From the IMG/VR virus record IMGVR_UViG_3300010388_000223, positions 1 through 30,986 of that record: a stretch of DNA of 30,986 nucleotides; one strand, 5' to 3'. Positions within the stretch are counted from its first letter, which is position 1; every line of letters begins with the position of its first letter. Position numbers and translations under genes: made by a program. Positions 4,221 to 25,374 of the stretch are shown here, one piece after another. A model generated the notes under the pieces. The model was not told where the DNA came from. It saw nothing but the letters and a program-made list of their open reading frames with translations, and did no database searches. This DNA is from a virus.

Positions 4221-4643
4221 ATGGTTAGAAATCGTGCAAGCGCAAAAAAAGCAGGAACAGCCTTCGAAACACTCGTCGCAGAATACCTAGCAATGAAACT
4301 AGCTGACATCAGAATTGAACGTCGAGCTAAGACTGGTGCTAAGGATCGTGGCGACATTGCTGGGGTTCTCACTGTTGCTGGTGGCGCGGTAGTTATCGAG
4401 TGTAAGAACACTGCCCGTGATGGGTTGCCTCAGTGGATTAAAGAAGCTGAGATTGAACGTAAGAATGATGATGAGGTTACTGGTCGTACTGTGGCTGGTG
4501 TTGTGGTGCATAAGAAGCATGGTTCTAATAAGGCTGCGGAACAGTATGTGACTATGACTTTGGAGACGTTTGTTATCTTGCTTGAGGGTGGTTCGCCTAA
4601 TGCGCGGTTTGTGGATGTGGCTAAAGAGGTGCGGAACGTATGA
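4221..4643 (+). CDS. PD-(D/E)xK-fold nuclease, Holliday-junction-resolvase-like
   Basis: GTAFETLVAEYL ... DRGDIAGV ... VVIECKN (D...ExK arrangement). First gene of a recombination module. Confidence 0.55.
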   Translation: MVRNRASAKKAGTAFETLVAEYLAMKLADIRIERRAKTGAKDRGDIAGVLTVAGGAVVIECKNTARDGLPQWIKEAEIERKNDDEVTGRTVAGVVVHKKHGSNKAAEQYVTMTLETFVILLEGGSPNARFVDVAKEVRNV

Positions 4644-5245
4644 TTCCTGTTGAGCGTTTTATAGTCTCTAGTCAGACTAAGGATTTGTGGCTTGAGGCGC
4701 GTGACCGTGGCGTTACAGCTACTCAGGTGGCTAAGGCTTCTACACCGGCTGGGTTGAAGGAGGTTTTGGCGCAAATTGAGAATCCTCAACCTGTTGATGT
4801 TAATGCTTTCATGTTGTGGGGTGTTGAGCGTGAACCTTATATTGCTCATGTTGTGAAGGAGCGTTTTGGGGTGTTGCCTAACGATTGGCTTATTGCTGCT
4901 GATGGCTCTGGTAATGAGTGGATGATGGCAACTCCTGACGGTTTGTCGCTGGATCACACTGTGATTGGTGAATATAAGACTTCTGGGAAACCGTTGGATG
5001 TTATCCCGTTGAACTATCTCAGGCAGATTCAATGGCAACTGTTTGTGACTGGTGCTGAACAATGTGTGTTTGCGTATGAGTTGCGGATGGAAGGGCCGGA
5101 AGGTTTTGTTCCTGGGTTTGATGTTGAATGTCAGATTGTGGAACGTAACGAGGAGATGATTTCTAAGCTGGTTGATACGGCTCAGAAGGTACAGGAGCAC
5201 GCTGTTTATTGGGAGCGTGCACAACGAGAAAAGGGAGAAAAATAA
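4640..5245 (+). CDS. YqaJ/lambda-Exo-like recombination exonuclease
   Basis: GVTATQVAKA ... WGVEREPYIA ... ATPDGL ... IGEYKT pattern of the YqaJ viral recombinase domain. ATGA coupling. Confidence 0.7.
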   Translation: MIPVERFIVSSQTKDLWLEARDRGVTATQVAKASTPAGLKEVLAQIENPQPVDVNAFMLWGVEREPYIAHVVKERFGVLPNDWLIAADGSGNEWMMATPDGLSLDHTVIGEYKTSGKPLDVIPLNYLRQIQWQLFVTGAEQCVFAYELRMEGPEGFVPGFDVECQIVERNEEMISKLVDTAQKVQEHAVYWERAQREKGEK

Positions 5246-5763
5246 TGGCACAATTCAGCCTTGATTCATACGAGTTAGTTGTTGACCGTATTAAACGGTT
5301 CTATGAAATGTATCCAGATGGTCGCATTATCACTGAGGATTACACTTCAGATAATGACCGCGCTTCTTTGATGTGGCGTGTGAAAGCTACTATTTATTTG
5401 AACGCTGGTGATCAGGCTCTTGGTTTACCTAAGTCAACAGGTCACGCTTTTGAGATTGACGGTGTTGGTATGGCGCAAAAGACTGCCGCGCTTGAGACTT
5501 GTGAAAGCTCTGCTATTGGGCGTGCCCTTTATGCTATGGGTTTGAGTGGGCAGAAAGCTCCTAGCCGTGAGGAGATGGAGAAGGCTCAACGGGGTAAGAC
5601 TCCTCAGAAGCCTGCTGTGAAGATTCCTGATGGCCTGCTTGACACTATTTCTAAGCTGGAGTCTATTGATGCTTTGAAGCTGGTGTGGGCTGAGGCTGTT
5701 GCTGGTGGCTATTCTGCTGATGTGCAGGATGCTGTGACTGCCCGTAAGAAGGAGCTCTCGTGA
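5245..5763 (+). CDS. Putative single-strand annealing protein (Rad52/Sak-like), partner of the exonuclease
   Basis: TAATG coupling to the exonuclease. Motif LETCESSAIGRALYAMGL resembles the conserved annealing-protein helix. Family assignment not verified. Confidence 0.5.
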   Translation: MAQFSLDSYELVVDRIKRFYEMYPDGRIITEDYTSDNDRASLMWRVKATIYLNAGDQALGLPKSTGHAFEIDGVGMAQKTAALETCESSAIGRALYAMGLSGQKAPSREEMEKAQRGKTPQKPAVKIPDGLLDTISKLESIDALKLVWAEAVAGGYSADVQDAVTARKKELS

Positions 5764-6083: not shown

Positions 6084-6152
6084 TTGGTACAATTAATAAA
6101 CCCCAGCGATACGCTAATATCCTGGGGCATGACCAACAAGTTAGGTGTTGAT

Positions 6153-6767
6153 ATGTCTGAGTATAAACGTTGTGCACGTTGTCGCAAAATATTACAATTA
6201 GAATCTTTTGGTAGCCACACTCGTTACAAAGATGGCAAACAACCTAGTTGCAAAGAATGCACTACTGAATATCGGCTGAATTGGAAGCATGAAAAACTTC
6301 TTGTTGATCCAGATTACTTTAATAGGGAATCAAGAGAACGTACATTAAAAAACCCTGAAGCAGTTAGACAATATAAAAAAGAATGGCGCAATAACAATTT
6401 AGATAAAGCTCGTAGTTATGCTGTTGATTGGGCAAAAAGAAATCCTGAGTCTGTAAAGCGTAATATTGCTAATTGGATTGCTAATAATCCTGAAAAAGTG
6501 GCTGCTAGTAAACATTCTAGGAGAACCAGAAAGTTAGCTAATGGTGTTTTTGATGTGCGTAAATCTTATATTGCTAGATTGTATGCTTCTAATTGTGTGG
6601 CTTGTGGAAGCAATAAAAATATTGAGTTAGATCACGTTATGCCTATTTCTCGTGGTGGTGCTCAGAGTGAAGGCAATTTGCAGCCTTTGTGTCGTTTTTG
6701 TAATAGGTCAAAAGGAAATAAAACAATGATGGAATGGCGAATTTGCCAGATAAGAAGGGGTGCATAG
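6153..6767 (+). CDS. HNH endonuclease with N-terminal zinc ribbon (free-standing, homing-type)
   Basis: CARCRK...CKEC, then NIELDHVMPISRGGAQSEGNLQPLCRFCNRSKGNK. Start chosen at ATG 6153 (SD aggtg). The track ORF begins at TTG 6084, which lies inside a tGGTACAAT -10-like box. Confidence 0.8.
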   Translation: MSEYKRCARCRKILQLESFGSHTRYKDGKQPSCKECTTEYRLNWKHEKLLVDPDYFNRESRERTLKNPEAVRQYKKEWRNNNLDKARSYAVDWAKRNPESVKRNIANWIANNPEKVAASKHSRRTRKLANGVFDVRKSYIARLYASNCVACGSNKNIELDHVMPISRGGAQSEGNLQPLCRFCNRSKGNKTMMEWRICQIRRGA

Positions 6768-6994
6768 TGGCTGATTGGCATAGTAAGGCTTTATGCGCTG
6801 AGATTGGTTCTGATTTATGGTTTGCGGATTCTACGCATACGGCTGAGAATAAGCGTGCTAAACAGATTTGTTTTGAGTGTCCTGTTCGTGTGGAGTGTTT
6901 GGAGGATGCTTTGCGTGGGAATATTCAGTTTGGTGTGTGGGGTGGTTTGACGCCCCAAGAACGTAGAAGTTTAAAAAGAAAGCAAAAAAGGTAA
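6767..6994 (+). CDS. whiB: WhiB-family Fe-S transcription factor
   Basis: Four Cys (C-Xn-CFEC-X5-C), GVWGG turn, basic tail RRSLKRKQKR. GTG 6767 (SD aagaagggg) is preferred; ATG 6734 is an alternative start. Confidence 0.85.
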   Translation: MADWHSKALCAEIGSDLWFADSTHTAENKRAKQICFECPVRVECLEDALRGNIQFGVWGGLTPQERRSLKRKQKR

Positions 6995-7635
6995 TGGCAC
7001 TAAATGGGTACGAGGTGCATCCAATATCTAATAAATATGCTTTAGATATGGTGATTGAGAATCACTACTTGCATAGGTCTGCCCCTGCCATGTTTAGCTT
7101 TGGCTTATTTGATGAAATGATGTTGATGGTTGGTTGCATTATTTATGGGAAGCCTGCTTCTCCTTCTTTGTGCCGTGGCGTTTGTGGGCCTGATGAGTCT
7201 GATTATGTTATTGAGCTAACTAGATTGTGGATAGCTGATATAACTCCTAGAAATGCTGAGTCTTTTCTTATTGGTGCGTCTTTGAAAATGTTGCCTAAAG
7301 AGTATGACATTGTTGTTTCTTACGCTGAGATTGGCGCTGGCCATGTTGGTATGGTTTATCAGGCTACTAACTGGATTTATACGGGGCTTTCTGATGCTCA
7401 TGTTGAGTGGCGGTTGGATGGTGATTCTAGTAAGCATTCTCGTCATTTGTTTGATGAGCATGGTGGTGTTGATGGTGCTAAGGCTTTTTATGGTGACAGG
7501 CTTGAACGGCATGAGCGTGGGCGTAAGCACCGTTATGTAATGTTTAGGGGGTCTAAGTTTCGTAGGCGTGAGCTGTTGGGCAAGTTACGTTATGAGGTTC
7601 GTGAGTATCCTAAGGTGTTTGAAAAAGTTTTTTGA
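6994..7635 (+). CDS. Mom-like GNAT-fold protein (candidate DNA base-modification enzyme)
   Basis: Motifs ENHYLHRSAP, GCIIYGKP, VIELTRLWI, VVSYAEIGAGHVGMVYQATNWIYTG, recalled as typical of the Mom (adenine methylcarbamoylation) family. From memory, not searched. Confidence 0.45.
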   Translation: MALNGYEVHPISNKYALDMVIENHYLHRSAPAMFSFGLFDEMMLMVGCIIYGKPASPSLCRGVCGPDESDYVIELTRLWIADITPRNAESFLIGASLKMLPKEYDIVVSYAEIGAGHVGMVYQATNWIYTGLSDAHVEWRLDGDSSKHSRHLFDEHGGVDGAKAFYGDRLERHERGRKHRYVMFRGSKFRRRELLGKLRYEVREYPKVFEKVF

Positions 7636-8222: not shown

Positions 8223-8353
8223 ATACGCCGCTAAGGTCTGTGAGGGTTTCTGATGAGATTTGGAAGCCTGCTTTGGCTAAGGCTGAGGCTGAGGGTGTTC
8301 CTTTGACTTCTGTTATTGTGACGGCCCTAATCGAGTTTGTGCACTCAAAATGA
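8219..8353 (+). CDS. Ribbon-helix-helix (CopG/Arc-like) DNA-binding protein (44 aa)
   Basis: Hand translation: MNTPLRSVRVSDEIWKPALAKAEAEGVPLTSVIVTALIEFVHSK (beta strand plus two helices). ATGA overlaps on both sides. Confidence 0.6.
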   Translation: MNTPLRSVRVSDEIWKPALAKAEAEGVPLTSVIVTALIEFVHSK

Positions 8354-8964
8354 TTCTCGGAAAGTTTGATTGCTCAACTGGATTATCAAACACTCTTTAT
8401 GTGAATGGTGATTTGACAGTTAGAACAGCATTACCTCAAGACCAAAGTTTTATTGACAAGCTGCAAAAAGATAATTCTTATGCTGTTGGTTTTATTCAAA
8501 ACACTATCTGGGAAAAGTATGTGTTTGGTGGCGAACGTAATTTCATGGTTTTTATTTGTGAAAAGAATAATGACATGGTTGGTTATGTTTTGTTGACTCC
8601 TGGTAGGCGTGCTCATACTTATGCAAAGATTCAGCAGATTGCTGTTCGTGAGGATGCTAGGCGGCTTGATTACGGGTCTGCATTATTAGCTGTTGTTAGG
8701 GATTTTTGTAATACTTTTGACCGTATCGGTGTCACGTTGCGTTGCCGTATTGATTTGGAATCTAATAAGTTTTGGCAGGCTTTAGGGTTTGGCCTGTATG
8801 GTGTTTGGAAAAAGGGTGAAGTTAACCATGTTGGTTTTAAGGCTTCTAATGACATTAATTTGTGGCGTATTGATTTGAATGACAAGTTGCTTTTTTTGTT
8901 TGATGTGAATGAAACTGATACTGGTTTGCATGCTCATTCTGTTGTTAAAGCTAACCGTGATTGA
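8350..8964 (+). CDS. GNAT-family N-acetyltransferase
   Basis: Acetyl-CoA motif A: IQQIAVREDARRLDYGSALL. Downstream NKFWQALGF. Confidence 0.75.
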   Translation: MILGKFDCSTGLSNTLYVNGDLTVRTALPQDQSFIDKLQKDNSYAVGFIQNTIWEKYVFGGERNFMVFICEKNNDMVGYVLLTPGRRAHTYAKIQQIAVREDARRLDYGSALLAVVRDFCNTFDRIGVTLRCRIDLESNKFWQALGFGLYGVWKKGEVNHVGFKASNDINLWRIDLNDKLLFLFDVNETDTGLHAHSVVKANRD

Positions 8965-8975
8965 TTGGTGTGTAT

Positions 8976-9407
8976 ATGTCTATTGGGCGTAAATCTAAAT
9001 CTAACGTGGCTAAATCGCGCCCTATAGTGTTTAGGCGTGACGGGCGTGAATGTGTCGTTGCTGGACTGTTTGAAGCGTATAGGTGGCCTTGTGCAGGCGG
9101 TTTGACGGTACAACACCGGCGCGGTAGGGGTATGGGTGGTTCAGCGAACTGGGATGACCCTGAATGTCTCGTGTCTATGTGTGCGGCACATAATGTGTTA
9201 GAGACTGCTGATGCAGACTTTAAGAAGGTGTGCCTAAAGTTTGGGTGGAGTGTTCCACGCTGGGTGGCTGATCAGTATGCCATGAGCCGTATCCCTGTCA
9301 GATATGCTGATGGCTGGTTTTTGTTGTCTGGTGAGGGCAGGTATAGTATCAGTGACAACACTGCTCAGACACTCATAGAGGAAATCTATGGCACTCTATT
9401 TGAGTGA
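8976..9407 (+). CDS. HNH endonuclease-like protein
   Basis: RRDGRECVVAG...GGLTVQHRRGRGMGG...LVSMCAAHN. Confidence 0.6.
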   Translation: MSIGRKSKSNVAKSRPIVFRRDGRECVVAGLFEAYRWPCAGGLTVQHRRGRGMGGSANWDDPECLVSMCAAHNVLETADADFKKVCLKFGWSVPRWVADQYAMSRIPVRYADGWFLLSGEGRYSISDNTAQTLIEEIYGTLFE

Positions 9408-10407: not shown

Positions 10408-11629
10408 CCAAAATGACGCTGAACTTGCAGTGCTGGGAGCTGTAATTGCTACAGCAGGTGATTGCCTAGACGACATATCTTTAACAGGTCAAGATTTTGC
10501 TAACCCTAAACTAGGTGACTTGTTTGACCTTATGCGCGGTATGCGTAATGAGCAGAAACATATTGACCTAGTTACGGTAATGGATGCTAAACCTTCTGAG
10601 CGTGCCCTGATTGCTACACTCACTGATCATGCGCCATTTGCTCATGCTGTTGAGTCTTATGCAGCTATTGTGACTACTCATTCTATGCGCCGTAAACTAT
10701 CGGCTGTAGCTTTAGGGTTGAACAGTATTGAGCCTTCTTTGTCTGTTGAGGACATGGCTGAATATGCTCGTAAGCTTGTTGATGATGCTGTTGGGGAACA
10801 TAAATCTAAGGTGAAGTTTGTTGCCGATTTTCTGCCAACTGTAATTGAGCGTTTGCAGTCTAAGGATTTGTTTGTTGAGACGCCGTGGAAGAAGCTTGAT
10901 TATGCTATTGGTGGTTTTCGCCCTGGCGCAGTGTATGTGATTGCTGCTCGACCTGGTGTTGGTAAGACTGTTGTTGCTGCTCAGATTGCGGTGGCGTTGT
11001 CTCAGCATGGTGTTGTTCCGTTTTCGTCGCTAGAGATGTCTGGTGAGGAGCTTGTGACTCGACTGGTATCTGAACGGTTGCAGATTAGTGTTGGCCATTT
11101 GAAAGATGCCCGTATGACTGACCGTGACTGGCAGTTATTGGATGATAAGCGTTCTCTTGTTGACGGCTTGCAGATTGCTATTGATGATAGGTCTGGTATT
11201 GGCCCTAGTGAGATTCGCTCGTTTGTGCGTACTGTGTCTCGTCATGGGAAACTTGCAGGGATTGTTGTTGACTATATGCAACTTATGACTTCTAAGAATA
11301 AGGTTGAACGTCATAATCAGGTGGCTGAGTTTAGCCGCCAGTTAAAGGTGATGGCTAAGGATTTTCAAGTTCCTGTCATTGCTTTGTCTCAGTTGAATAG
11401 GAATGTTGAGAATCGGGTTGAGGCTCATCCTCGTTTGTCTGATTTGCGTGAGTCTGGTGCTATTGAGCAGGATGCTGATGTAGTGATGTTGTTGCGCCGT
11501 GAGGGTTCTGATCCGCATGAGTCTTTGGTTATTGATGTTGCTAAGAATCGTCATGGTCAGACCGGTGAGGTTGAGTTGAGCTGGGACGGTATTTATTCTC
11601 GTGCTGTTGAATGGGATACAACATTTTGA
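10397..11629 (+). CDS. dnaB: DnaB-family replicative helicase
   Basis: Walker A ARPGVGKT, SLEMS, VVDYMQLM, LSQLNR, LRESGAIEQDADVV. Confidence 0.9.
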   Translation: MLTNQNDAELAVLGAVIATAGDCLDDISLTGQDFANPKLGDLFDLMRGMRNEQKHIDLVTVMDAKPSERALIATLTDHAPFAHAVESYAAIVTTHSMRRKLSAVALGLNSIEPSLSVEDMAEYARKLVDDAVGEHKSKVKFVADFLPTVIERLQSKDLFVETPWKKLDYAIGGFRPGAVYVIAARPGVGKTVVAAQIAVALSQHGVVPFSSLEMSGEELVTRLVSERLQISVGHLKDARMTDRDWQLLDDKRSLVDGLQIAIDDRSGIGPSEIRSFVRTVSRHGKLAGIVVDYMQLMTSKNKVERHNQVAEFSRQLKVMAKDFQVPVIALSQLNRNVENRVEAHPRLSDLRESGAIEQDADVVMLLRREGSDPHESLVIDVAKNRHGQTGEVELSWDGIYSRAVEWDTTF

Positions 11630-12548: not shown

Positions 12549-12802
12549 TGTTAGAGAACCTATCTTTTGAGAAGAAACTAAATAATTGCAAGGTTCGCAC
12601 ACTGATCGAGTCGCTCGATAAGAAAGATGCTGAACTGCTTAACGGCTATATTGCTGATGAGGAAAACTGGAGCGCATACACACTATCATTAGCTCTCAGT
12701 AAGCGCGGTGTTGCGCTAGATGATAAAGTTATTGCTAAGCACAGGAGCAAACTTTGCACCTGTGAGGAATATTATGCTAGAAAATCTAACTCCAGCAGCT
12801 AA
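12548..12802 (+). CDS. HTH DNA-binding protein
   Basis: CKVRTLIESLDKKDAELL...WSAYTLSLALSKRGVALDDKVIAKHRSKLCTC, a pattern common in actinophage HTH proteins. Confidence 0.55.
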   Translation: MLENLSFEKKLNNCKVRTLIESLDKKDAELLNGYIADEENWSAYTLSLALSKRGVALDDKVIAKHRSKLCTCEEYYARKSNSSS

Positions 12803-13922
12803 AGTATCTGCACCCTCAAACTTTCGACCAGGTGTCGAGTTTGACGGCACTGAAGGCACTGCAACAACTCCAGGCTATACGTCAGAGCCTCAAAACTTTG
12901 ACGAGTTCCTGATTGATGCAGGGTTTGATCCTGACACTATTGAAGTTGTTGGGAATATGCGCACTAGCCGTTGGCAGAAGTATGATGGCGAGTGGTTGAC
13001 TTCTTACCGTTTTCATTTCCGCAAGAAGGGTACACAGGTTGATTTGCCTGTGTTGATGTCTCAAGCGTTTAAGAAGGTAAAACTTAAACCTATTATTAAA
13101 AATAATGATAAAGCATTAGTAATTTTGTGGAGTGATTTGCAGGTTGGAAAGGTGGACTATCGCGGTAATAGTGAGACTCTTGTTGAGCGTGTCGCTATCA
13201 TGCAGCAACGGTTGACCAAGCTGATTCGTGAACAGAAACCTAGCAAGATACTGTTTTGCGACACTGGGGATGTTGTAGAAAACTTCTCTAACAAGGCTTC
13301 TATGGCACAACTCCAGTCCAATGATTTATCTATTATGGAGCAGGTTGATTTGGCTACCACATTTGCGTGGGAAACCCTGAAACAACTTCATGCACTCGTG
13401 CCAGATATAACCTATTTGAGTATTGGTTCTAATCACTGTCAGTGGCGTGTAAATGGTCAACAGGTAGGCAAGGCAACAGATGACTGGGGTATCTTTATAG
13501 GTCGCCAGTTAGCTAAACTGTCTGATGCTATGGGGTTAGGGATAAAGTTTATTGAACCTCAGCCACATGATGAATCGTTAGCATATGATGTGTTTGGTGA
13601 CGGCTTCCACATTCTCGGGCTAGTGCATGGGCATCAAGTCGCTAGACCTGAAGGGCTTGGTGACTGGTGGCGTAAACAGGCATTTGGTAAGCAGGCTGTT
13701 GCTGGAGCTACTATTCTTGCTCACGGCCATTTTCACCATTTGCGTGTGACTGAGCTGGGTTCTAATGATCGGGGTAATTCACGTTTCATAGTGATGGCTT
13801 CAACACTAGATAACGGCTCAGGCTGGTATCGTCTAAACTCGGGTGAGGATAGTGTGCCTGGGCTTGTGACATTCTTTTTGGAGAAGGATGTTGATTTTAC
13901 GGGTACTGTCTATAAGCTGTAG
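12774..13922 (+). CDS. Metallophosphoesterase (Mre11/SbcD-like nuclease fold)
   Basis: ILWSDLQVGK, CDTGDVVEN, GSNHCQW, GLVHGHQ, LAHGHFHH. Start taken at ATG 12774 (MLENLTPAAK). Confidence 0.7.
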   Translation: MLENLTPAAKVSAPSNFRPGVEFDGTEGTATTPGYTSEPQNFDEFLIDAGFDPDTIEVVGNMRTSRWQKYDGEWLTSYRFHFRKKGTQVDLPVLMSQAFKKVKLKPIIKNNDKALVILWSDLQVGKVDYRGNSETLVERVAIMQQRLTKLIREQKPSKILFCDTGDVVENFSNKASMAQLQSNDLSIMEQVDLATTFAWETLKQLHALVPDITYLSIGSNHCQWRVNGQQVGKATDDWGIFIGRQLAKLSDAMGLGIKFIEPQPHDESLAYDVFGDGFHILGLVHGHQVARPEGLGDWWRKQAFGKQAVAGATILAHGHFHHLRVTELGSNDRGNSRFIVMASTLDNGSGWYRLNSGEDSVPGLVTFFLEKDVDFTGTVYKL

Positions 13923-13945
13923 TTATGTTAGAGAGGGAAGAATAA

Positions 13946-14191
13946 ATGAGTGAAAGCAATATGCAAAAAATGCAAATTCCTTACACACCTACAACAGAAG
14001 AAGTACGCAACCTGTTCTCTTGGCACAACGATGAGGGGGAGATAGTCGCTAAGGGTGGCTTTGACCGTTGGCTTGCTGAAGTAAAAGCAGACGCTTTCAA
14101 TGAAGGTTATGTGGCTGGGAAAGCTATCGGTCTAAGCGATGGAATGAAACTGATTCAAAACATTCGCCACAGGAGAGAGGAAGCAGAATGA
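13946..14191 (+). CDS. FDRWLAE-motif paralog A
   Basis: SD gagggaag. YTPTTEEVR ... FDRWLAEVKADAF. Confidence 0.75.
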   Translation: MSESNMQKMQIPYTPTTEEVRNLFSWHNDEGEIVAKGGFDRWLAEVKADAFNEGYVAGKAIGLSDGMKLIQNIRHRREEAE

Positions 14192-14520
14192 GTGCTGACC
14201 CACAGACGGGATTGCCATCGCTAAATACTGAACAGCTCAGGTTTCTACACGTTGGAGACTTCCGTGGAACTAAGCGTGAGCAAGAAAAGGTTGCTGAGTT
14301 TGACCGTTGGCTTGCTGAAATAAAAGCCGATGCCTTCGCTCAAGGGCGCGACTCACAACGTGACCATGCTGAACACATGGAGCGTGAACGCATCATCAAG
14401 CTGCTTGAAGGCGCAGAGCGTGAAGCCAATACGGCCAAGCCAATCACCGGAGGCTCATACGGCTACTGGGAAGGTTTGAACAAGGCTATTGCGCTTATCA
14501 AGGGAGAGAACATTGAGTGA
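14188..14520 (+). CDS. FDRWLAE-motif paralog B
   Basis: ATGA coupling. EFDRWLAEIKADAF. Confidence 0.75.
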   Translation: MSADPQTGLPSLNTEQLRFLHVGDFRGTKREQEKVAEFDRWLAEIKADAFAQGRDSQRDHAEHMERERIIKLLEGAEREANTAKPITGGSYGYWEGLNKAIALIKGENIE

Positions 14521-14782
14521 AAGCAATATGCAAAAAATGCAAAATCCTTACACACCTACAACAGAAGAAGTACGCGCCAACTATCTTCCACCTAGGACAG
14601 AAATAGTTGACGCAGACGAGCAGTTTGACCGTTGGCTTGCTGAAGTAAAAGCACAAGCATGGGAAGAAGGGCAAATATCACTACTGAAATATATGGGAGT
14701 TCCCCTTTACCCATCTAAAAGCGATGAACCAAGGAACCCCAAACAGCCACTAAACCCTTACCGACAGGGAGAAGAACAGTGA
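14513..14782 (+). CDS. FDRWLAE-motif paralog C
   Basis: TTG 14513 is homologous to the ATG of paralog A (tTGAGTGAAAGCAATATGCAAAAAATGCAAA...), with SD gggagag. ATG 14528 is an alternative start. Confidence 0.7.
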   Translation: MSESNMQKMQNPYTPTTEEVRANYLPPRTEIVDADEQFDRWLAEVKAQAWEEGQISLLKYMGVPLYPSKSDEPRNPKQPLNPYRQGEEQ

Positions 14783-15003
14783 GTGATTACACGCCTACAA
14801 CAGAAGAAGTACGCGCAGCTTATGGGGGGCAACTTATCAAGATTGGTGAAAATAGGTTTGAGTTTATTGACGAGGGACAAGCCGCGTCTGAGTTTGACCG
14901 TTGGCTTGCTGAAGTAAAAGCCCAAGTCTGGGATGACGCGTGGAAAGAAGGTTCTGAATATCCAAAAGAAAACTTCAACCCTTACAGGCAAGGAGAAAAA
15001 TAA
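14779..15003 (+). CDS. FDRWLAE-motif paralog D
   Basis: GTGA coupling. MSDYTPTTEEVR ... EFDRWLAEVKAQVW ... NPYRQGEK. Confidence 0.7.
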   Translation: MSDYTPTTEEVRAAYGGQLIKIGENRFEFIDEGQAASEFDRWLAEVKAQVWDDAWKEGSEYPKENFNPYRQGEK

Positions 15004-15176
15004 TGCCAACATATGTTTACCAGTGTGACTGTGGCTACAGGGAAGAAGTCACACACTCTATCACTGCTGAAATAGAAATAATCTGCTCTTATTGTGACAA
15101 GCCGTTGCAGCGTAAACCTCAACGATCAAGTGTGCAATTTAAGGGTGACGGCTGGGCAAGCAGGGAAACAAGATAA
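15003..15176 (+). CDS. FmdB-family zinc-ribbon protein (57 aa)
   Basis: Hand translation: MPTYVYQCDCGYREEV...ICSYCDKPL...FKGDGWASRETR. CxC...CxxC. TAATG coupling. Confidence 0.7.
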   Translation: MPTYVYQCDCGYREEVTHSITAEIEIICSYCDKPLQRKPQRSSVQFKGDGWASRETR

Positions 15177-15298
15177 TGTTCACCAAACATAATGCACTGT
15201 TTTGTTGCCCAGAGTTTCAGCAGGCGTATCGCAACGGTACAGATACTCAGCATGAGTGCAGTAAAGAACCTGTCTATGTTGTGGAAGGCGAACAGTGA
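15176..15298 (+). CDS. Small Cys-containing hypothetical protein (40 aa)
   Basis: Hand translation: MFTKHNALFCCPEFQQAYRNGTDTQHECSKEPVYVVEGEQ. Coupled at both ends (TAATG, GTGA). Confidence 0.45.
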   Translation: MFTKHNALFCCPEFQQAYRNGTDTQHECSKEPVYVVEGEQ

Positions 15299-16359
15299 AA
15301 ACCATCACTCTAACACCGTGGCCGATATATCCTGTCATGTCTGGCGGTCAAGAAAGATGCTGGAATCTAGCAAAAGCACTAGATGAATCCACAGTGTTTA
15401 GCTTGGACTGGACTGGTGAAAGCACACACCAACGCATTGAGGGCGTGAACTATAAAACTATTGGTGCTGATCCTGCAGCAATAGCACAAGCCAAACTTCT
15501 TATGCAGTCTGGTGTGAAAACTTTTGACCCTATGCCTATGCTGACTAAGAAGAAACTTGACACTATTAGACGTGAGATAGACAACAGCGACCCAGACCTC
15601 ATCATTTTGGAACATCCGTGGCTGTTAGACCTCACAGACGGCAGACCATATATTTATGACAGTCACAACTGCGAGACTCTAAACACTAGGCAACAGTTCC
15701 CTTACAGCCTAGACGTTGACCTAGTAGCTAACCTAGAACGTAGGGCTACACAGCAGGCAGAACATATGACCTACACTGCTGAAAAAGACCTGAAAGCTAT
15801 GCGCCAACTGTACCCTTTCACTACACCAGTAACGCACATACCTAACGGGGTGACACTGCCTGACACTATCGCTACAGGGGAAGAACTCAACCTCATCTTT
15901 ATCGGATCACTCTATGGCCCTAACATTCAAGCCGCGAAAGAACTCATAGCCCTTGCCCCACTACTAAGGGAATACAAGATACGCATACTAGGCAACGTAT
16001 GTTCAGTACTTGAGTCACGTTATGACAATGTTGAACTGATAGGAGCAGTAAACGATAAACAACTTGATTACTACTTTAGAACTGCTCACGCATTTGTGAA
16101 CCTTACACAGACAGGCTCAGGCACACACCTCAAGATTGGTCGCGCCCTAGCCTACGGCCTACCAGTGATAACAACACCTATCGGCGGCAGAGGATACCAA
16201 ACACCACTCATCAGCAGTATCGCCAACGTACCAGACAACATCAGATCACTACGCCGCAACTGGAAACAACACTCAGAATGGTCACGCAGTGAAGCAGAAC
16301 TAATCACATGGGAAATAGTAGGAGACAAGTTCAGGCAGGTAATCAATGGCCTTCAATAA
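15295..16359 (+). CDS. Glycosyltransferase, GT-B fold (family 1/4-like)
   Basis: LTPWPIYPVMSGGQER at the N-terminus. C-terminal GSGTHLKIGRALAYGLPVITTPIGGRGY. Confidence 0.75.
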   Translation: MKTITLTPWPIYPVMSGGQERCWNLAKALDESTVFSLDWTGESTHQRIEGVNYKTIGADPAAIAQAKLLMQSGVKTFDPMPMLTKKKLDTIRREIDNSDPDLIILEHPWLLDLTDGRPYIYDSHNCETLNTRQQFPYSLDVDLVANLERRATQQAEHMTYTAEKDLKAMRQLYPFTTPVTHIPNGVTLPDTIATGEELNLIFIGSLYGPNIQAAKELIALAPLLREYKIRILGNVCSVLESRYDNVELIGAVNDKQLDYYFRTAHAFVNLTQTGSGTHLKIGRALAYGLPVITTPIGGRGYQTPLISSIANVPDNIRSLRRNWKQHSEWSRSEAELITWEIVGDKFRQVINGLQ

Positions 16360-16678
16360 ACCCTGCATAGTCTGTGGCACACTCAGCCGTGGTACTAGAT
16401 GCGAACAACATCAAACAGAACTCGACCAACGCAAACAGGCCGCGAAAGACAAAGACCCCACACACAAAGCAAAGAAAGCCACCCTATACGGGTACAGATA
16501 CCAGCAGGCCAGACGTATAGTCAAAGCAACAGCAACACAATGCCACATCTGTAAACAACCATTCACACCAACAGACAACATAGACGCAGACCACCTATAC
16601 CCAGGCGACCCCACATCACCACTACTTCCAGCACACAGCAGATGCAACCGTAGCAGAGGCAACAGACAACTAGAATAA
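16346..16678 (+). CDS. HNH endonuclease, packaging-associated (adjacent to terminase)
   Basis: CIVCG...C..H; CHICKQPF...DADHL...HSRCNRSRGN. Position immediately upstream of terS. Confidence 0.8.
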   Translation: MAFNKPCIVCGTLSRGTRCEQHQTELDQRKQAAKDKDPTHKAKKATLYGYRYQQARRIVKATATQCHICKQPFTPTDNIDADHLYPGDPTSPLLPAHSRCNRSRGNRQLE

Positions 16679-16706
16679 CCATTCGAACACATATTCGAAC
16701 ACCACA

Positions 16707-16718
16707 ACATATAGTGGT
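16707..16718 (+). repeat. 12-bp direct repeat acatatagtggt, copy 1 (cos/terminase-recognition candidate)
   Basis: Exact second copy at 16833..16844. Also the tandem attcgaacac at 16681 and 16693. Confidence 0.6.
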
Positions 16719-16724
16719 GCATAG

Positions 16725-16757
16725 CCCCCCACGTCATAGATGGGGGGTATCTTTTTT
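16725..16757 (+). terminator. Rho-independent terminator after the HNH gene
   Basis: cccccca-cgtcataga-tgggggg followed by tatctttttt. Confidence 0.8.
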
Positions 16758-16832
16758 GTGACAAACACGCCACTCCTCACCCCCCAGCCTAGCCTTTTCT
16801 GTATATCCGCAGTTCAGACCCCTCGGGATACT

Positions 16833-16844
16833 ACATATAGTGGT
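16833..16844 (+). repeat. 12-bp direct repeat acatatagtggt, copy 2
   Basis: Exact match to 16707..16718, 36 nt upstream of terS. Confidence 0.6.
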
Positions 16845-16879
16845 AGTCTGGATGTGCGAACCTACGCGAAAGGAATGAG

Positions 16880-17323
16880 ATGCCTAATCCGCCTAAGCCT
16901 GCTGAGTTGAAGTTGTTGCAGGGGAATCCTGGTAAGCGTGGTTTGCGTTTGAATGATGCGGTTGCGCCTATGGAGTATGGGTATGTTGAGCCGCCTGCTG
17001 ATTTGCGTGAGTCTGGATTGGCGTTGTGGCAAAAGATTTTTGGTGCTGGTGAGTTGTGGATTTCTATTCGTACTGATGTTGATTTGGTGACTCAGGTCTG
17101 TAGGCAGATGGATAGGCGTGATGAGTTGTCGCGTAGGTTTTGGGATGAGCCTGAGTCTCGTGTTGTGAATATGAGTTTGTTGGAGACTGAGAAGGCTATT
17201 GTTAATGGTTTGTCGCTGCTTGGCTTTTCGCCTGCTGACCGGACTCGTCTTGGTTTGGTATCAGCTAAAACTAAATCCAAGCTTGAGGAGCTGATGGATC
17301 GTAAGGCTCAGGCTGGTAAATGA
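16880..17323 (+). CDS. terS: Terminase small subunit (P27 family)
   Basis: PKPAELKLLQGNPGKRGL N-terminal signature. Upstream of terL with ATGA coupling. Confidence 0.8.
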   Translation: MPNPPKPAELKLLQGNPGKRGLRLNDAVAPMEYGYVEPPADLRESGLALWQKIFGAGELWISIRTDVDLVTQVCRQMDRRDELSRRFWDEPESRVVNMSLLETEKAIVNGLSLLGFSPADRTRLGLVSAKTKSKLEELMDRKAQAGK

Positions 17324-24186: not shown

Positions 24187-25374
24187 ATGATGGCTGTAGA
24201 GAAATTGCGCGGTGTCGTATCTGTTGCTTCTAACTCGTATGATTCGCCTACTGGCTATGGGGTGCAGGTGAAGCTTTTGATTGACCGTATGGTTAAGCAT
24301 GGTTTGAAGGTTGCTAACCTGTCTAATTATGGGCTTGAGGGTCGTATTGATGAGATTAAGACTCCTCACGGGAAGATTCCTCATTATCCTCGTGGATTCA
24401 AGCCTTACAGTGATGATGTCATTCCGGTGTGGCATGAGGATCATAAGTCGCATAATCCTGATGTGAAAGATGCTGTAATTACTCTTTATGATCAGTGGGT
24501 TTACAATGACCTAAAGTTTGATGGTGACATTATTGCCTGGACTCCACTAGATCACGTCACGTTGCCACCTAACGTGCTCAAGTTTCTTTTACGCCCTAAT
24601 GTTCACCCTGTGACTATGTCACCGCATGGGCAACGTCAGTTAGAGCGTGCCGGTGTGGATAGTGTGTATATTCCTCACGCGATTGATACGAGTGTGATGA
24701 AGCCTACTGATGATTTTGTGGGTGTGCCGATTCGCCAATATTTGGATGTTCCTGATGATGCGTTTCTGGTGTCTATGGTTGCAGCTAATAAGGCTAATGG
24801 TTTGGTGCATCGTAAGGCGCTTGCTGAGCAGTTGATGGCTTTCAGTATTTTCCGGCAAGAGTATCCTGACGCTTATCTTTATATTCATAGTGAGCCTAGC
24901 CCTGTGTTTGGTGGGTTTAATATTCCAGCCTTGTTGAGGGCGTGTGGCTTGTCTGATGAGTATGTGCGTATTTTGAATAGTGACGTGAACCGTACTGGAT
25001 ATCCTGACGAGTTTTTGGCGGCAGTGTATACGGGTTCTGACGTTATGTTGCAGGTGTCGTATGGTGAAGGTTTTGGTGTGCCTGTGATTGAGGCTCAGGC
25101 GTGTGGCACTCGTGTTATCACCTCTAATTGGGCGGCGACTCAAGACTTGGCTGGTGATGATTCTTTCTTGGTTGATGGGCAACCGTTCTGGGATGAACCT
25201 CAACAGTCGTTCTACAACATTCCTAACATTGGTTCTATCGTGAACGCGCTAAAACTTGCTTATGCTGCTCCTCGTGGAATCAGTCAGGCTTCTATAGAGT
25301 TTGCTAAACAGTTTGAGGTTGATCGTGTGTGGAACTGGTATTGGATGCCCTATTTGCGTGAGTTCTTCAAATGA
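24187..25374 (+). CDS. Glycosyltransferase, GT-B fold (family 1/4-like)
   Basis: YGEGFGVPVIEAQACGTRVITSNWAATQDL (E-X7-E region). SD aaggga. Confidence 0.75.
   Translation: MMAVEKLRGVVSVASNSYDSPTGYGVQVKLLIDRMVKHGLKVANLSNYGLEGRIDEIKTPHGKIPHYPRGFKPYSDDVIPVWHEDHKSHNPDVKDAVITLYDQWVYNDLKFDGDIIAWTPLDHVTLPPNVLKFLLRPNVHPVTMSPHGQRQLERAGVDSVYIPHAIDTSVMKPTDDFVGVPIRQYLDVPDDAFLVSMVAANKANGLVHRKALAEQLMAFSIFRQEYPDAYLYIHSEPSPVFGGFNIPALLRACGLSDEYVRILNSDVNRTGYPDEFLAAVYTGSDVMLQVSYGEGFGVPVIEAQACGTRVITSNWAATQDLAGDDSFLVDGQPFWDEPQQSFYNIPNIGSIVNALKLAYAAPRGISQASIEFAKQFEVDRVWNWYWMPYLREFFK

Follow-up and report, generated by a model that had tools for sequence, protein, structure and literature searches.

Two described phage systems come closest to the locus analyzed here. 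In the gp38 adhesins of T2/T6-type phages, hypervariable segments lie between conserved glycine-rich motifs that form the structural core (Trojet et al. 2011, PMC3157838), and crossovers within these small conserved motifs generate chimeras (PMC3157838; Tetart et al. 1998 as cited there). In the hyperplastic regions of T4-type phages, short repeats composed of an early promoter and a stem-loop (PeSLs) flank small non-essential open reading frames (ORFs) (Arbiol et al. 2010, PMC2839356; PMC4122927) and mediate the insertion, deletion and replacement of the ORFs that they flank (PMC2839356). The mosaicism of lambdoid phages is driven by Rad52-like recombinases through relaxed homologous recombination (De Paepe et al. 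2014, PMC3945230), and these phage recombinases act on short homologies, with a minimum of about 30 bp for Red-beta (PMC3945230). Here we describe a tandem array of four small genes, A to D, in the virus record IMGVR_UViG_3300010388_000223. We refer to the whole stretch of 30,986 nucleotides (nt) as the window, and all coordinates without a contig name are positions of the window on its plus strand. The genes of the array share short islands of nearly identical nucleotide sequence separated by highly diverged segments. Judging from the sequence comparisons, the main new finding is that the conservation of these islands at the codon level reaches beyond this genome, to otherwise unrelated phages and prophages.

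Gene A (13946-14191, 81 amino acids (aa)) is composed of the leader MSESNMQKMQ, a first island (I1), a variable segment (var1) of the type NLFSWHNDEGEIVAKGG, a second island (I2) and a helical C-terminal module without NPYR. Gene B (14188-14520, 110 aa) joins the N-terminal part of the family, including I2, to an ERERIIKLL...IALIKGEN module (about 14362-14517). Since this module stands alone as a gene in three other contigs (L006, 3325-3540; L009, 5771-5995; L008, within ORF 6131-6391), gene B is a chimera. The beginning of the module, AAYEWGFEKG, resembles the AWEEG stretch that follows I2. Gene C (14513-14782, TTG start, 89 aa) has an A-type leader, I1, I2 and an NPYRQGEEQ tail; an alternative ATG start at 14528 would yield 84 aa, which corresponds to the gene call P0004. 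Gene D (14779-15003, GTG start, 74 aa) is a minimal canonical member, with MSDYTPTTEEVR, a hairpin-type var1, FDRWLAEVKA and NPYRQGEK. Stops and starts overlap as ATGA between A and B, as GTGA between C and D and as TAATG between D and the following gene. Because the genes overlap, there is no intergenic space within the array, and all reading frames and couplings are intact. The preliminary description of the locus had recognized four translationally coupled small genes sharing the motif FDRWLAE(V/I)KA, and we indeed found the motif in all four proteins, together with YTPTTEEVR in A, C and D.

I2 encodes FDRWLAEVKA through the 29-mer TTTGACCGTTGGCTTGCTGAAGTAAAAGC, which is exact in A (14060-14088), C (14624-14652) and D (14893-14921) and has one change in B (14299-14327), just as had been reported. 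No match to it was found in 100 shuffled sequences, and the same is true of TACACACCTACAACAGAAGAAGTACGC, the 27-mer that encodes YTPTTEEVR and defines I1, which had none in any shuffle. I1 is identical in A (13982-14008) and C (14549-14575) and carries one change in D (14788-14814), while B possesses the core but not this 5' island, its I1 having diverged. In A and C, I1 belongs to a longer repeat of 75 nt that comprises ribosome-binding site, start, leader and I1 and is 91% identical between the two genes (13934-14008 and 14501-14575); the earlier observation that the 5' ends of A and C are alike, and in part that of D, is thus correct. A third island (I3) spans the gene junction at 14753-14786 (AACCCTTACCGACAGGGAGAAGAACAGTGAGTGA) and has a weaker copy at 14977-15005, so that the 3' ends of C and D are also alike (79% between 14753-14781 and 14977-15005). 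I3 encodes NPYRQGEEQ and the stop codon together with the Shine-Dalgarno sequence and the GTG start of gene D, and the next gene has its ribosome-binding site within the codons for RQGE. Over its 34 nt it is 100% identical to positions 10588-10621 of prophage L001. The junction consensus GGGAGA-N6-(A/G)TGAGTGAY, also written GGGAGA-N6-NTGAGTGAY, followed by TACACACCTACAACAG, occurs on dozens of contigs, where it bounds the cassettes. Between the islands the sequences of the array copies cannot be aligned, in agreement with the high divergence first noted there. Cross-genome islands, the third island at the junction and the fusion in gene B are, as far as the sequences can tell, what is new beyond the initial reading.

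We compared the codons used for identical residues of the four genes. The same codon is used at 76 of 93 such residues within the islands and at 40 of 73 outside them, and synonymous conservation is therefore unequal, as the preliminary description had predicted. The island codons are minor ones in the window genome (GTA 12%, ACA 18%, CTT 22%, GAC 31%), and the probability of obtaining them given the residues is 2.8e-4 per gene for I2 and 2.9e-6 for I1. With local codon usage, the probability for I2 becomes about 1e-3 per gene (a hand estimate from local counts). Other contigs were scanned with patterns degenerate, and hence unbiased, at synonymous sites. These scans, together with searches at the protein level, recovered loci in which TTT GAC CGT TGG CTT GCT GAA GTA AAA are the recurrent codons of I2 and TAC ACA CCT ACA ACA GAA GAA GTA CG those of I1, and I2 is codon-identical in most family members of low guanine-plus-cytosine (GC) content. 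The codons of I2 are nearly fixed (TTT 66/71, GAC 69/72, CGT 64/68, CTT 62/70, GCT 57/61) and 89-96% uniform in a set of 74 unique family genes whose contigs have GC <= 0.53. The alanine next to the core is encoded by GCA in 25 genes, GCC in 15, GCT in 13 and GCG in two, and between two and four codons are in use for other conserved residues (Tyr, Glu, Gly), all four being used at one conserved Gly.

The same measure can be applied to pairs of genomes, by comparing the islands with the other genes shared with the window. In three distant genomes, the fraction of identical residues encoded by the same codon as in the window is 0.98 in the islands and 0.38 in the shared genes (L001), 0.93 and 0.38 (L002), and 0.98 and 0.36 (L128). 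A value of about 0.37 in shared genes looks like saturation of synonymous sites. Among the relatives L005-L009 the shared genes reach 0.53-0.61 and the islands 0.73-0.93, the closer relative L008 having 0.53 and 0.73, respectively. Since pairs of genomes are not independent of each other, we rely on these effect sizes only and not on the P-values of Fisher tests. Island identity is decoupled from genome relatedness, because it is 0.93-0.98 in the distant L001, L002 and L128 and only 0.73 in the closer L008. In L001, L002, L003, L012 and L014 the islands are almost the sole nucleotide matches to the window. L008 and L028 have variant islands, common to both copies. Moreover, synonymous codons vary freely in an FDRWLAEVERA subclade and in high-GC members, which means that the protein family as such does not depend on the nucleotide sequence of the islands.

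To describe the variable parts, we divided each gene into a leader, var1 (a loop or hairpin between helices) and var2 (the C-terminal part), which are joined at I1, I2 and I3. A first screen for mosaics at 85% identity returned few pairs, and relaxed thresholds together with clustering of the modules at the protein level were informative. In 195 single-unit proteins, I1 and I2 are more than 90% conserved, while var1 falls into 124 clusters and var2 into 119. Of the 29 var1 clusters with several members, 27 are joined to at least two var2 clusters, all 22 of the corresponding var2 clusters are joined to at least two var1 clusters, and ten four-gamete violations occur among the modules. Breakpoints can be seen directly in L005 (5925-6165) and L072 (1329-1585), two genes that are near-identical through the junction and I1 and again 100% identical from I2 to the gene end, and whose var1 segments of 17 and 22 aa, respectively, are unrelated. 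Among three genes of L086, either the leader or var1 together with var2 is shared, in different combinations. The var1 cluster of gene A is common to P0009, P0018, P0023 and others, with other leaders and tails, and the var1 type of gene D is likewise found elsewhere with several other leaders and tails. Because these types recur in different surroundings, the variable parts are conserved modules that are reassorted rather than hypermutated. The description of the family as rapidly diversifying hence calls for a qualification, as the variable parts are discrete, are themselves conserved and occur in many combinations. For each copy in the window, the nearer var1 relatives are found on other contigs and not within its array. 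The products expected from recombination at the linkers are also found, namely proteins with two I2, fusions of two units and the chimeric gene B.

Arrays of two to five copies are common across contigs, and the number of copies differs between relatives. At the locus between exonuclease and glycosyltransferase there are four copies in the window, two in L008, one in L009 and none in Pontimonas phage phiPsal1. L008 holds a standalone ERDRII gene in addition to its two copies, and phiPsal1, the closest isolate, has two tiny ORFs at this locus and one weak family member elsewhere. A survey of copy number and breakpoints, which had been proposed at the outset, thus reveals both variable copy number and, in L005 and L072, breakpoints at the islands. 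In L005-L007 and L122, the cassettes lie between the RusA and YqaJ exonuclease genes instead, with the same junction repeat at their borders. No cassette separates these two genes in the window, where they overlap directly (at 4640). In L005 (5540-6305) and L006 (3320-3712), the exact boundary between RusA and the YqaJ exonuclease is occupied by one to four small cassettes. Among them are family genes, an ERERII gene and a gene for a small hydrophobic protein, and every cassette ends in a GGGAGAAACAGAATGA-type junction.

On balance, we think it probable that the window carries a tandem array of a large modular family in which homologous recombination at short linkers shuffles the modules and keeps the linkers uniform, and in which the variable modules may bind host targets. 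The linkers, of 27-36 nt, would be the crossover points, within the array for gene conversion and unequal crossing-over, and beyond it for exchange between co-infecting phages and prophages, and a single process would reshuffle the modules and homogenize the linkers. Because the same nucleotide islands are present in otherwise unrelated phages and prophages, this exchange would involve the whole gene pool. Recombination or gene conversion among the copies had been suggested from the start; the synonymous identity behind that suggestion is real, is not due to codon bias and is accompanied by direct mosaics, but exchange is not limited to the four local copies. The reaction would probably be catalyzed by the phage's own pair of a YqaJ/RecE-like exonuclease (4640-5245) and an annealing protein, for which the candidate is the 184-aa product of 5209-5763; a RusA-like resolvase is encoded at 4221-4643. 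This role is suggested by the position of the candidate and by its last 53 aa, the only part that matches an ERF-family protein of prophage L001 (43% identity to the C-terminus of that protein); the candidate could be an annealing protein of mosaic origin that shares an interaction tail. The weakest step of this explanation is the last one, in which the conserved helices would be a scaffold and the variable modules would bind variable host targets, in counter-defence or host takeover.

Some of our results weigh against recombination at the linkers as the cause of their uniformity. No profile identifies an annealing protein in the window, and the islands, 27-36 nt long, only just reach the length of known recombinase substrates. 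Islands diverge less within than between contigs (0.17 versus 0.77 nt and 1.14 versus 1.59 nt), with a permutation P-value of about 0.07-0.10 that is marginal. The fixed fourfold sites of I2 beside a freely varying alanine fit direct nucleotide selection equally well, and TACACACCTACAACAG is kept even when the downstream residues differ.

The last two points lead to the possibility that direct selection on the nucleotide sequence keeps the islands identical and that recombination there is a by-product. Junction and I1 would then form a translation-initiation cassette, with a Shine-Dalgarno sequence, a coupled start and CA/A-rich, weakly structured first codons, and I2 would be an RNA or DNA site with a binding, processing or regulatory role. 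We regard this explanation as unlikely overall. The near-invariance of the fourfold sites of I2 next to variable Ala and Gly codons fits it, as does the retention of TACACACCTACAACAG and GGGAGA-N6-NTGAGTGAY on many contigs. I1 is also predicted to be less base-paired than var1 (0.45 versus 0.61), the RQGE codons serve as the ribosome-binding site of the next gene, and translation in E. coli can be enhanced by downstream CA repeats. Selection may well act on the junction and I1 as a region of translation initiation. Such a role cannot, however, account for I2, situated about 115-150 nt into the genes, and the FDRWLAEVERA subclade and high-GC members encode the same motifs with freely varying codons, while both copies in L008 have variant islands. 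A nucleotide-level function of the islands also finds no counterpart in the searches that we made: there is no Rfam match at E <= 1 in positions 13000-17000 of the window, nothing resembling a promoter or terminator within the four genes or between them, and no consistent base pairing between I1 and I2. Antisense ORFs across I2 are present in genes C and D only.

Several specific functions of the islands were considered and set aside. An RNA element finds no support, given the absent Rfam match and the lack of consistent pairing between I1 and I2. An internal promoter in I2, noticed by eye as TTGACC-N15-TAAAAG, has poor spacing and a poor -10 box and is not called by the scan. Constraint by an antisense ORF fails because such ORFs cover I2 only in C and D. 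Avoidance of GATC could explain the GAC-CGT choice, and hence one codon at most, and GATC is about twofold depleted, as are most palindromes of four bases. This depletion relative to the Markov expectation concerns the whole window (GATC 48 versus 99, AATT 78 versus 139, GGCC 50 versus 84). The suggestion of a DNA- or RNA-level function of the core is thus weakened by the codon-variable subclades and the missing matches in Rfam and in the promoter and terminator scan, and the fixed fourfold sites still fit it.

The two mechanisms could also be combined, in that the islands would be selected as built-in recombination linkers or recognition sites, and a combinatorial cassette-shuffling system operating across the phage gene pool would yield variants of a small host-targeting protein. 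If so, the codon-level conservation would be kept since it lets copies recombine, and would not be a passive by-product. We consider this rather improbable.

Other readings fare much worse than recombination at the linkers or selection on them. That the four genes are young local duplicates, whose synonymous sites have not yet diverged and for which no continuing exchange needs to be assumed, is very unlikely. The 75-nt block at 91% identity in A and C and the similar 3' ends of C and D would agree with recent duplication, but the stretches between the islands cannot be aligned within the array; furthermore, the same island codons recur in unrelated genomes whose shared genes have a codon identity of about 0.37, and the nearer var1 relatives of the window copies lie in other contigs. 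An assembly artefact, that is, a collapsed, expanded or chimeric join across the repeats, seems to us still less credible. The contig does derive from a metagenome assembly (ENA ERZ926485, contig k127_48706, 31,058 nt) and repeats can mislead assemblers, but the islands measure only 27-34 nt and the longest exact run in the 75-nt block of A and C is about 31 nt, which is far shorter than the k-mer if, as we assume, the prefix 'k127' denotes a 127-mer assembly. In addition, the four copies differ everywhere else, their reading frames and couplings are all intact, and similar arrays occur on many independent contigs and in the isolate Aurantimicrobium minutum MWH-Bo1. Strong codon bias, which would give the same codons for the same motif, can practically be discarded: the segment at about 13.9-16.7 kb prefers A/C-ending codons as the islands do, but the island codons are minor genome-wide and improbable for I2 even under local usage, and elsewhere in these genes conserved residues are encoded by several codons. 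We also dismissed a diversity-generating retroelement, as no reverse transcriptase is present among the ORFs scanned and the variable segments differ in length, cannot be aligned and are not adenine-substituted.

The family to which the array belongs is large. A profile of the four array proteins matched 945 proteins in a word-indexed search, and a profile of 120 members retrieved 3,974 cluster representatives (50% identity, E <= 1e-3), 675 of them at E <= 1e-10. Family proteins have a median length of 82 aa, a median isoelectric point of 4.5 and a net charge of -0.10 per residue. Structure prediction had been recommended for all four proteins, and we obtained AlphaFold models of A and D. The model of D (predicted local distance difference test score (pLDDT) 79.4) has a helix at residues 8-16, a beta-hairpin with strands at 19-21 and 27-29, and a second helix at 32-58. 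In the model of A (pLDDT 78.5), helices at 17-26 and 32-60 are connected by a loop and followed by a third helix at 65-80. From these two models, I1 and I2 are therefore predicted to lie in the two scaffold helices and var1 to be their connector.

Annotation resources contain almost nothing on these proteins. None of the four reaches the gathering score of any Pfam or NCBIfam model, a profile search of PDB sequences gave no match, and PADLOC gave none either, its library covering defence proteins and not inhibitors. The 120 best homologues have no precomputed Pfam domain and no informative name, and longer family members contain no known extra domain. Among the family we noticed P0103, P0106, P0107, P0175 and P0225, which carry two FDRWLAEVKA motifs around a conserved Cys-rich insert (EREACVNHVKFLYCSHSMEYKPY...) or are in-frame fusions of whole units. 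Foldseek returned nothing significant in PDB for models A and D or in BFVD, where only model D was used; the best BFVD match to D (E = 5e-3) is an entry without name or function. Weak matches were obtained to phrog_33945, a group of unknown function, for C (2.4e-4) and D (7.5e-4), with A below threshold (0.037). The alignment covers the first 40 or so profile positions and corresponds to the I1 region; however, only this N-terminal quarter of the 160-position profile is matched, and B not at all. GenBank phages gave no match to the array at the nucleotide level and three 'hypothetical' matches at the protein level. The best match to a protein of a cultured phage is ON968453.1 35586-35849 (37.5% identity, E = 9e-7), in a record named Pseudanabaena phage Pan2. 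This match spans two hypothetical genes, and a cyanobacterial host is unexpected for an otherwise actinobacterial family. In the literature we found nothing relevant on the FDRWLAEVKA motif or on similar arrays. Based on the profile searches and the models, the family is very large and unannotated and is composed of small acidic helical proteins with a predicted two-helix scaffold. Small size, acidity and a variable accessory location would fit small phage proteins of the anti-defence or DNA-mimic type, although these features are not specific, and a counter-defence role, proposed from size, charge, location and modular variability, is a guess.

The window comprises nearly the entire genome of a siphovirus, about 31 kb in size, and its genes all lie on one strand. 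It begins with genes for a tail fibre, an endolysin, RusA, the YqaJ/RecE-like exonuclease, the 5209-5763 protein, an HNH endonuclease, a Mom-like protein, an acetyltransferase and another HNH endonuclease. There follow a replication initiator, DnaB, a metallophosphatase-type exonuclease, the array, a zinc ribbon, a GT4 glycosyltransferase and a third HNH endonuclease, and then terminase, portal, protease, capsid, a second glycosyltransferase, connector and tail genes. The left neighbour of the array is the exonuclease gene (12720-13922; phrog_284 at 2.8e-53), whose product shares 59% amino-acid identity with the 'repair endonuclease' of phiPsal1. On the right, a 57-aa FmdB-like CxxC zinc-ribbon protein (15003-15176) has its start coupled to D, and it also lies beside family genes in L008 and L009, with 77-89% amino-acid identity. 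The GT4 glycosyltransferase (15295-16359) precedes the terminase genes, with an HNH endonuclease (16346-16678) just before them. The segment of about 13950-16750, which includes the array, the zinc ribbon, GT4 and HNH, has an AT skew of +0.1 to +0.59, against a negative skew in the structural genes, and its third codon positions end in A/C rather than T. This distinct base composition suggests that the segment is an acquired or mobile accessory block. In L009, a 215-aa ORF (4953-5600) is inserted between exonuclease and zinc ribbon, and we take it to be a DNA methyltransferase from its DPPYG motif alone. The locus between exonuclease and zinc ribbon appears from these sequences to be an insertion hot spot, of which the L009 insert would be a further sign.

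Further genes of the window deserve mention. Three genes for HNH-type endonucleases are found in 31 kb (6084-6767, 8961-9407 and 16346-16678), in addition to a Mom-like DNA-modification gene (6994-7635) and the acetyltransferase gene (8350-8964). There are two glycosyltransferases, one beside the array (15295-16359) and one just after the major capsid gene (24187-25374), and the glycosyltransferases of phiPsal1 also adjoin its capsid gene. That these enzymes are linked to the Thr-rich YTPTT motif is pure speculation.

Because phiPsal1 is the closest isolate and because the isolate A. minutum MWH-Bo1 carries an array in a prophage, we infer that the phage infects an aquatic bacterium of the Microbacteriaceae. 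According to the gene content of the contigs, members of the family are found among the accessory genes of the early/replication region, in siphoviruses and prophages whose hosts are aquatic Actinobacteria of the Microbacteriaceae type.

With 3,974 clusters at 50% identity, the family is unannotated and recurrent in phages and prophages of abundant aquatic Actinobacteria; since it is so large and recurrent, thousands of genes would gain an annotation from any function assigned to it. The locus provides a clean natural case of sub-gene module shuffling in non-structural phage genes, with linkers at the length limit of recombinases. It allows a direct test of whether short homology islands are passively kept by gene conversion or selected, and an isolate with such an array, A. 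minutum MWH-Bo1, exists. The islands can also seed chimeric joins and broken contigs in metagenome assemblies and confuse gene clustering.

The runs of small, translationally coupled accessory genes that make up the lambda nin region, between replication and late genes, offer a first parallel. The array likewise consists of coupled small genes, in a window that also encodes RusA, the YqaJ exonuclease and a candidate annealing protein, but we found no homology to the nin genes. In pilE/pilS of Neisseria and vlsE of Borrelia, conserved segments alternate with variable ones and gene conversion reassorts cassettes, with one expression site, silent donor copies and dedicated initiation mechanisms. 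In contrast, all copies of the array appear to be expressed, and we see no machinery of that kind.

The two systems introduced at the beginning are nearer. As in gp38, conserved motifs, here I1 and I2 of the array family, separate the leader, var1 and var2, and the breakpoints of natural chimeras fall within them, on comparative evidence. Unlike the array, gp38 is a single-copy virion adhesin of known role, and there is no relation of sequence or fold between the two. The array genes are multi-copy, tandem and non-structural, and their recombination is inferred from comparison and not from crosses; none of them matches an adhesin in Pfam or PHROG, and they lie in the early/accessory region and not in the tail module. 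As with PeSLs, repeats bound each cassette of the array, in the form of the I3 junctions, and the number and position of cassettes differ among relatives. PeSLs, however, are intergenic promoter-terminator units, whereas the linkers of the array are coding sequence or ribosome-binding sites with overlapping stop and start. Because it has no homology to gp38, no virion role and no promoter-terminator units as linkers, the array is, on this analysis, a member of neither system, and matches both in its logic.

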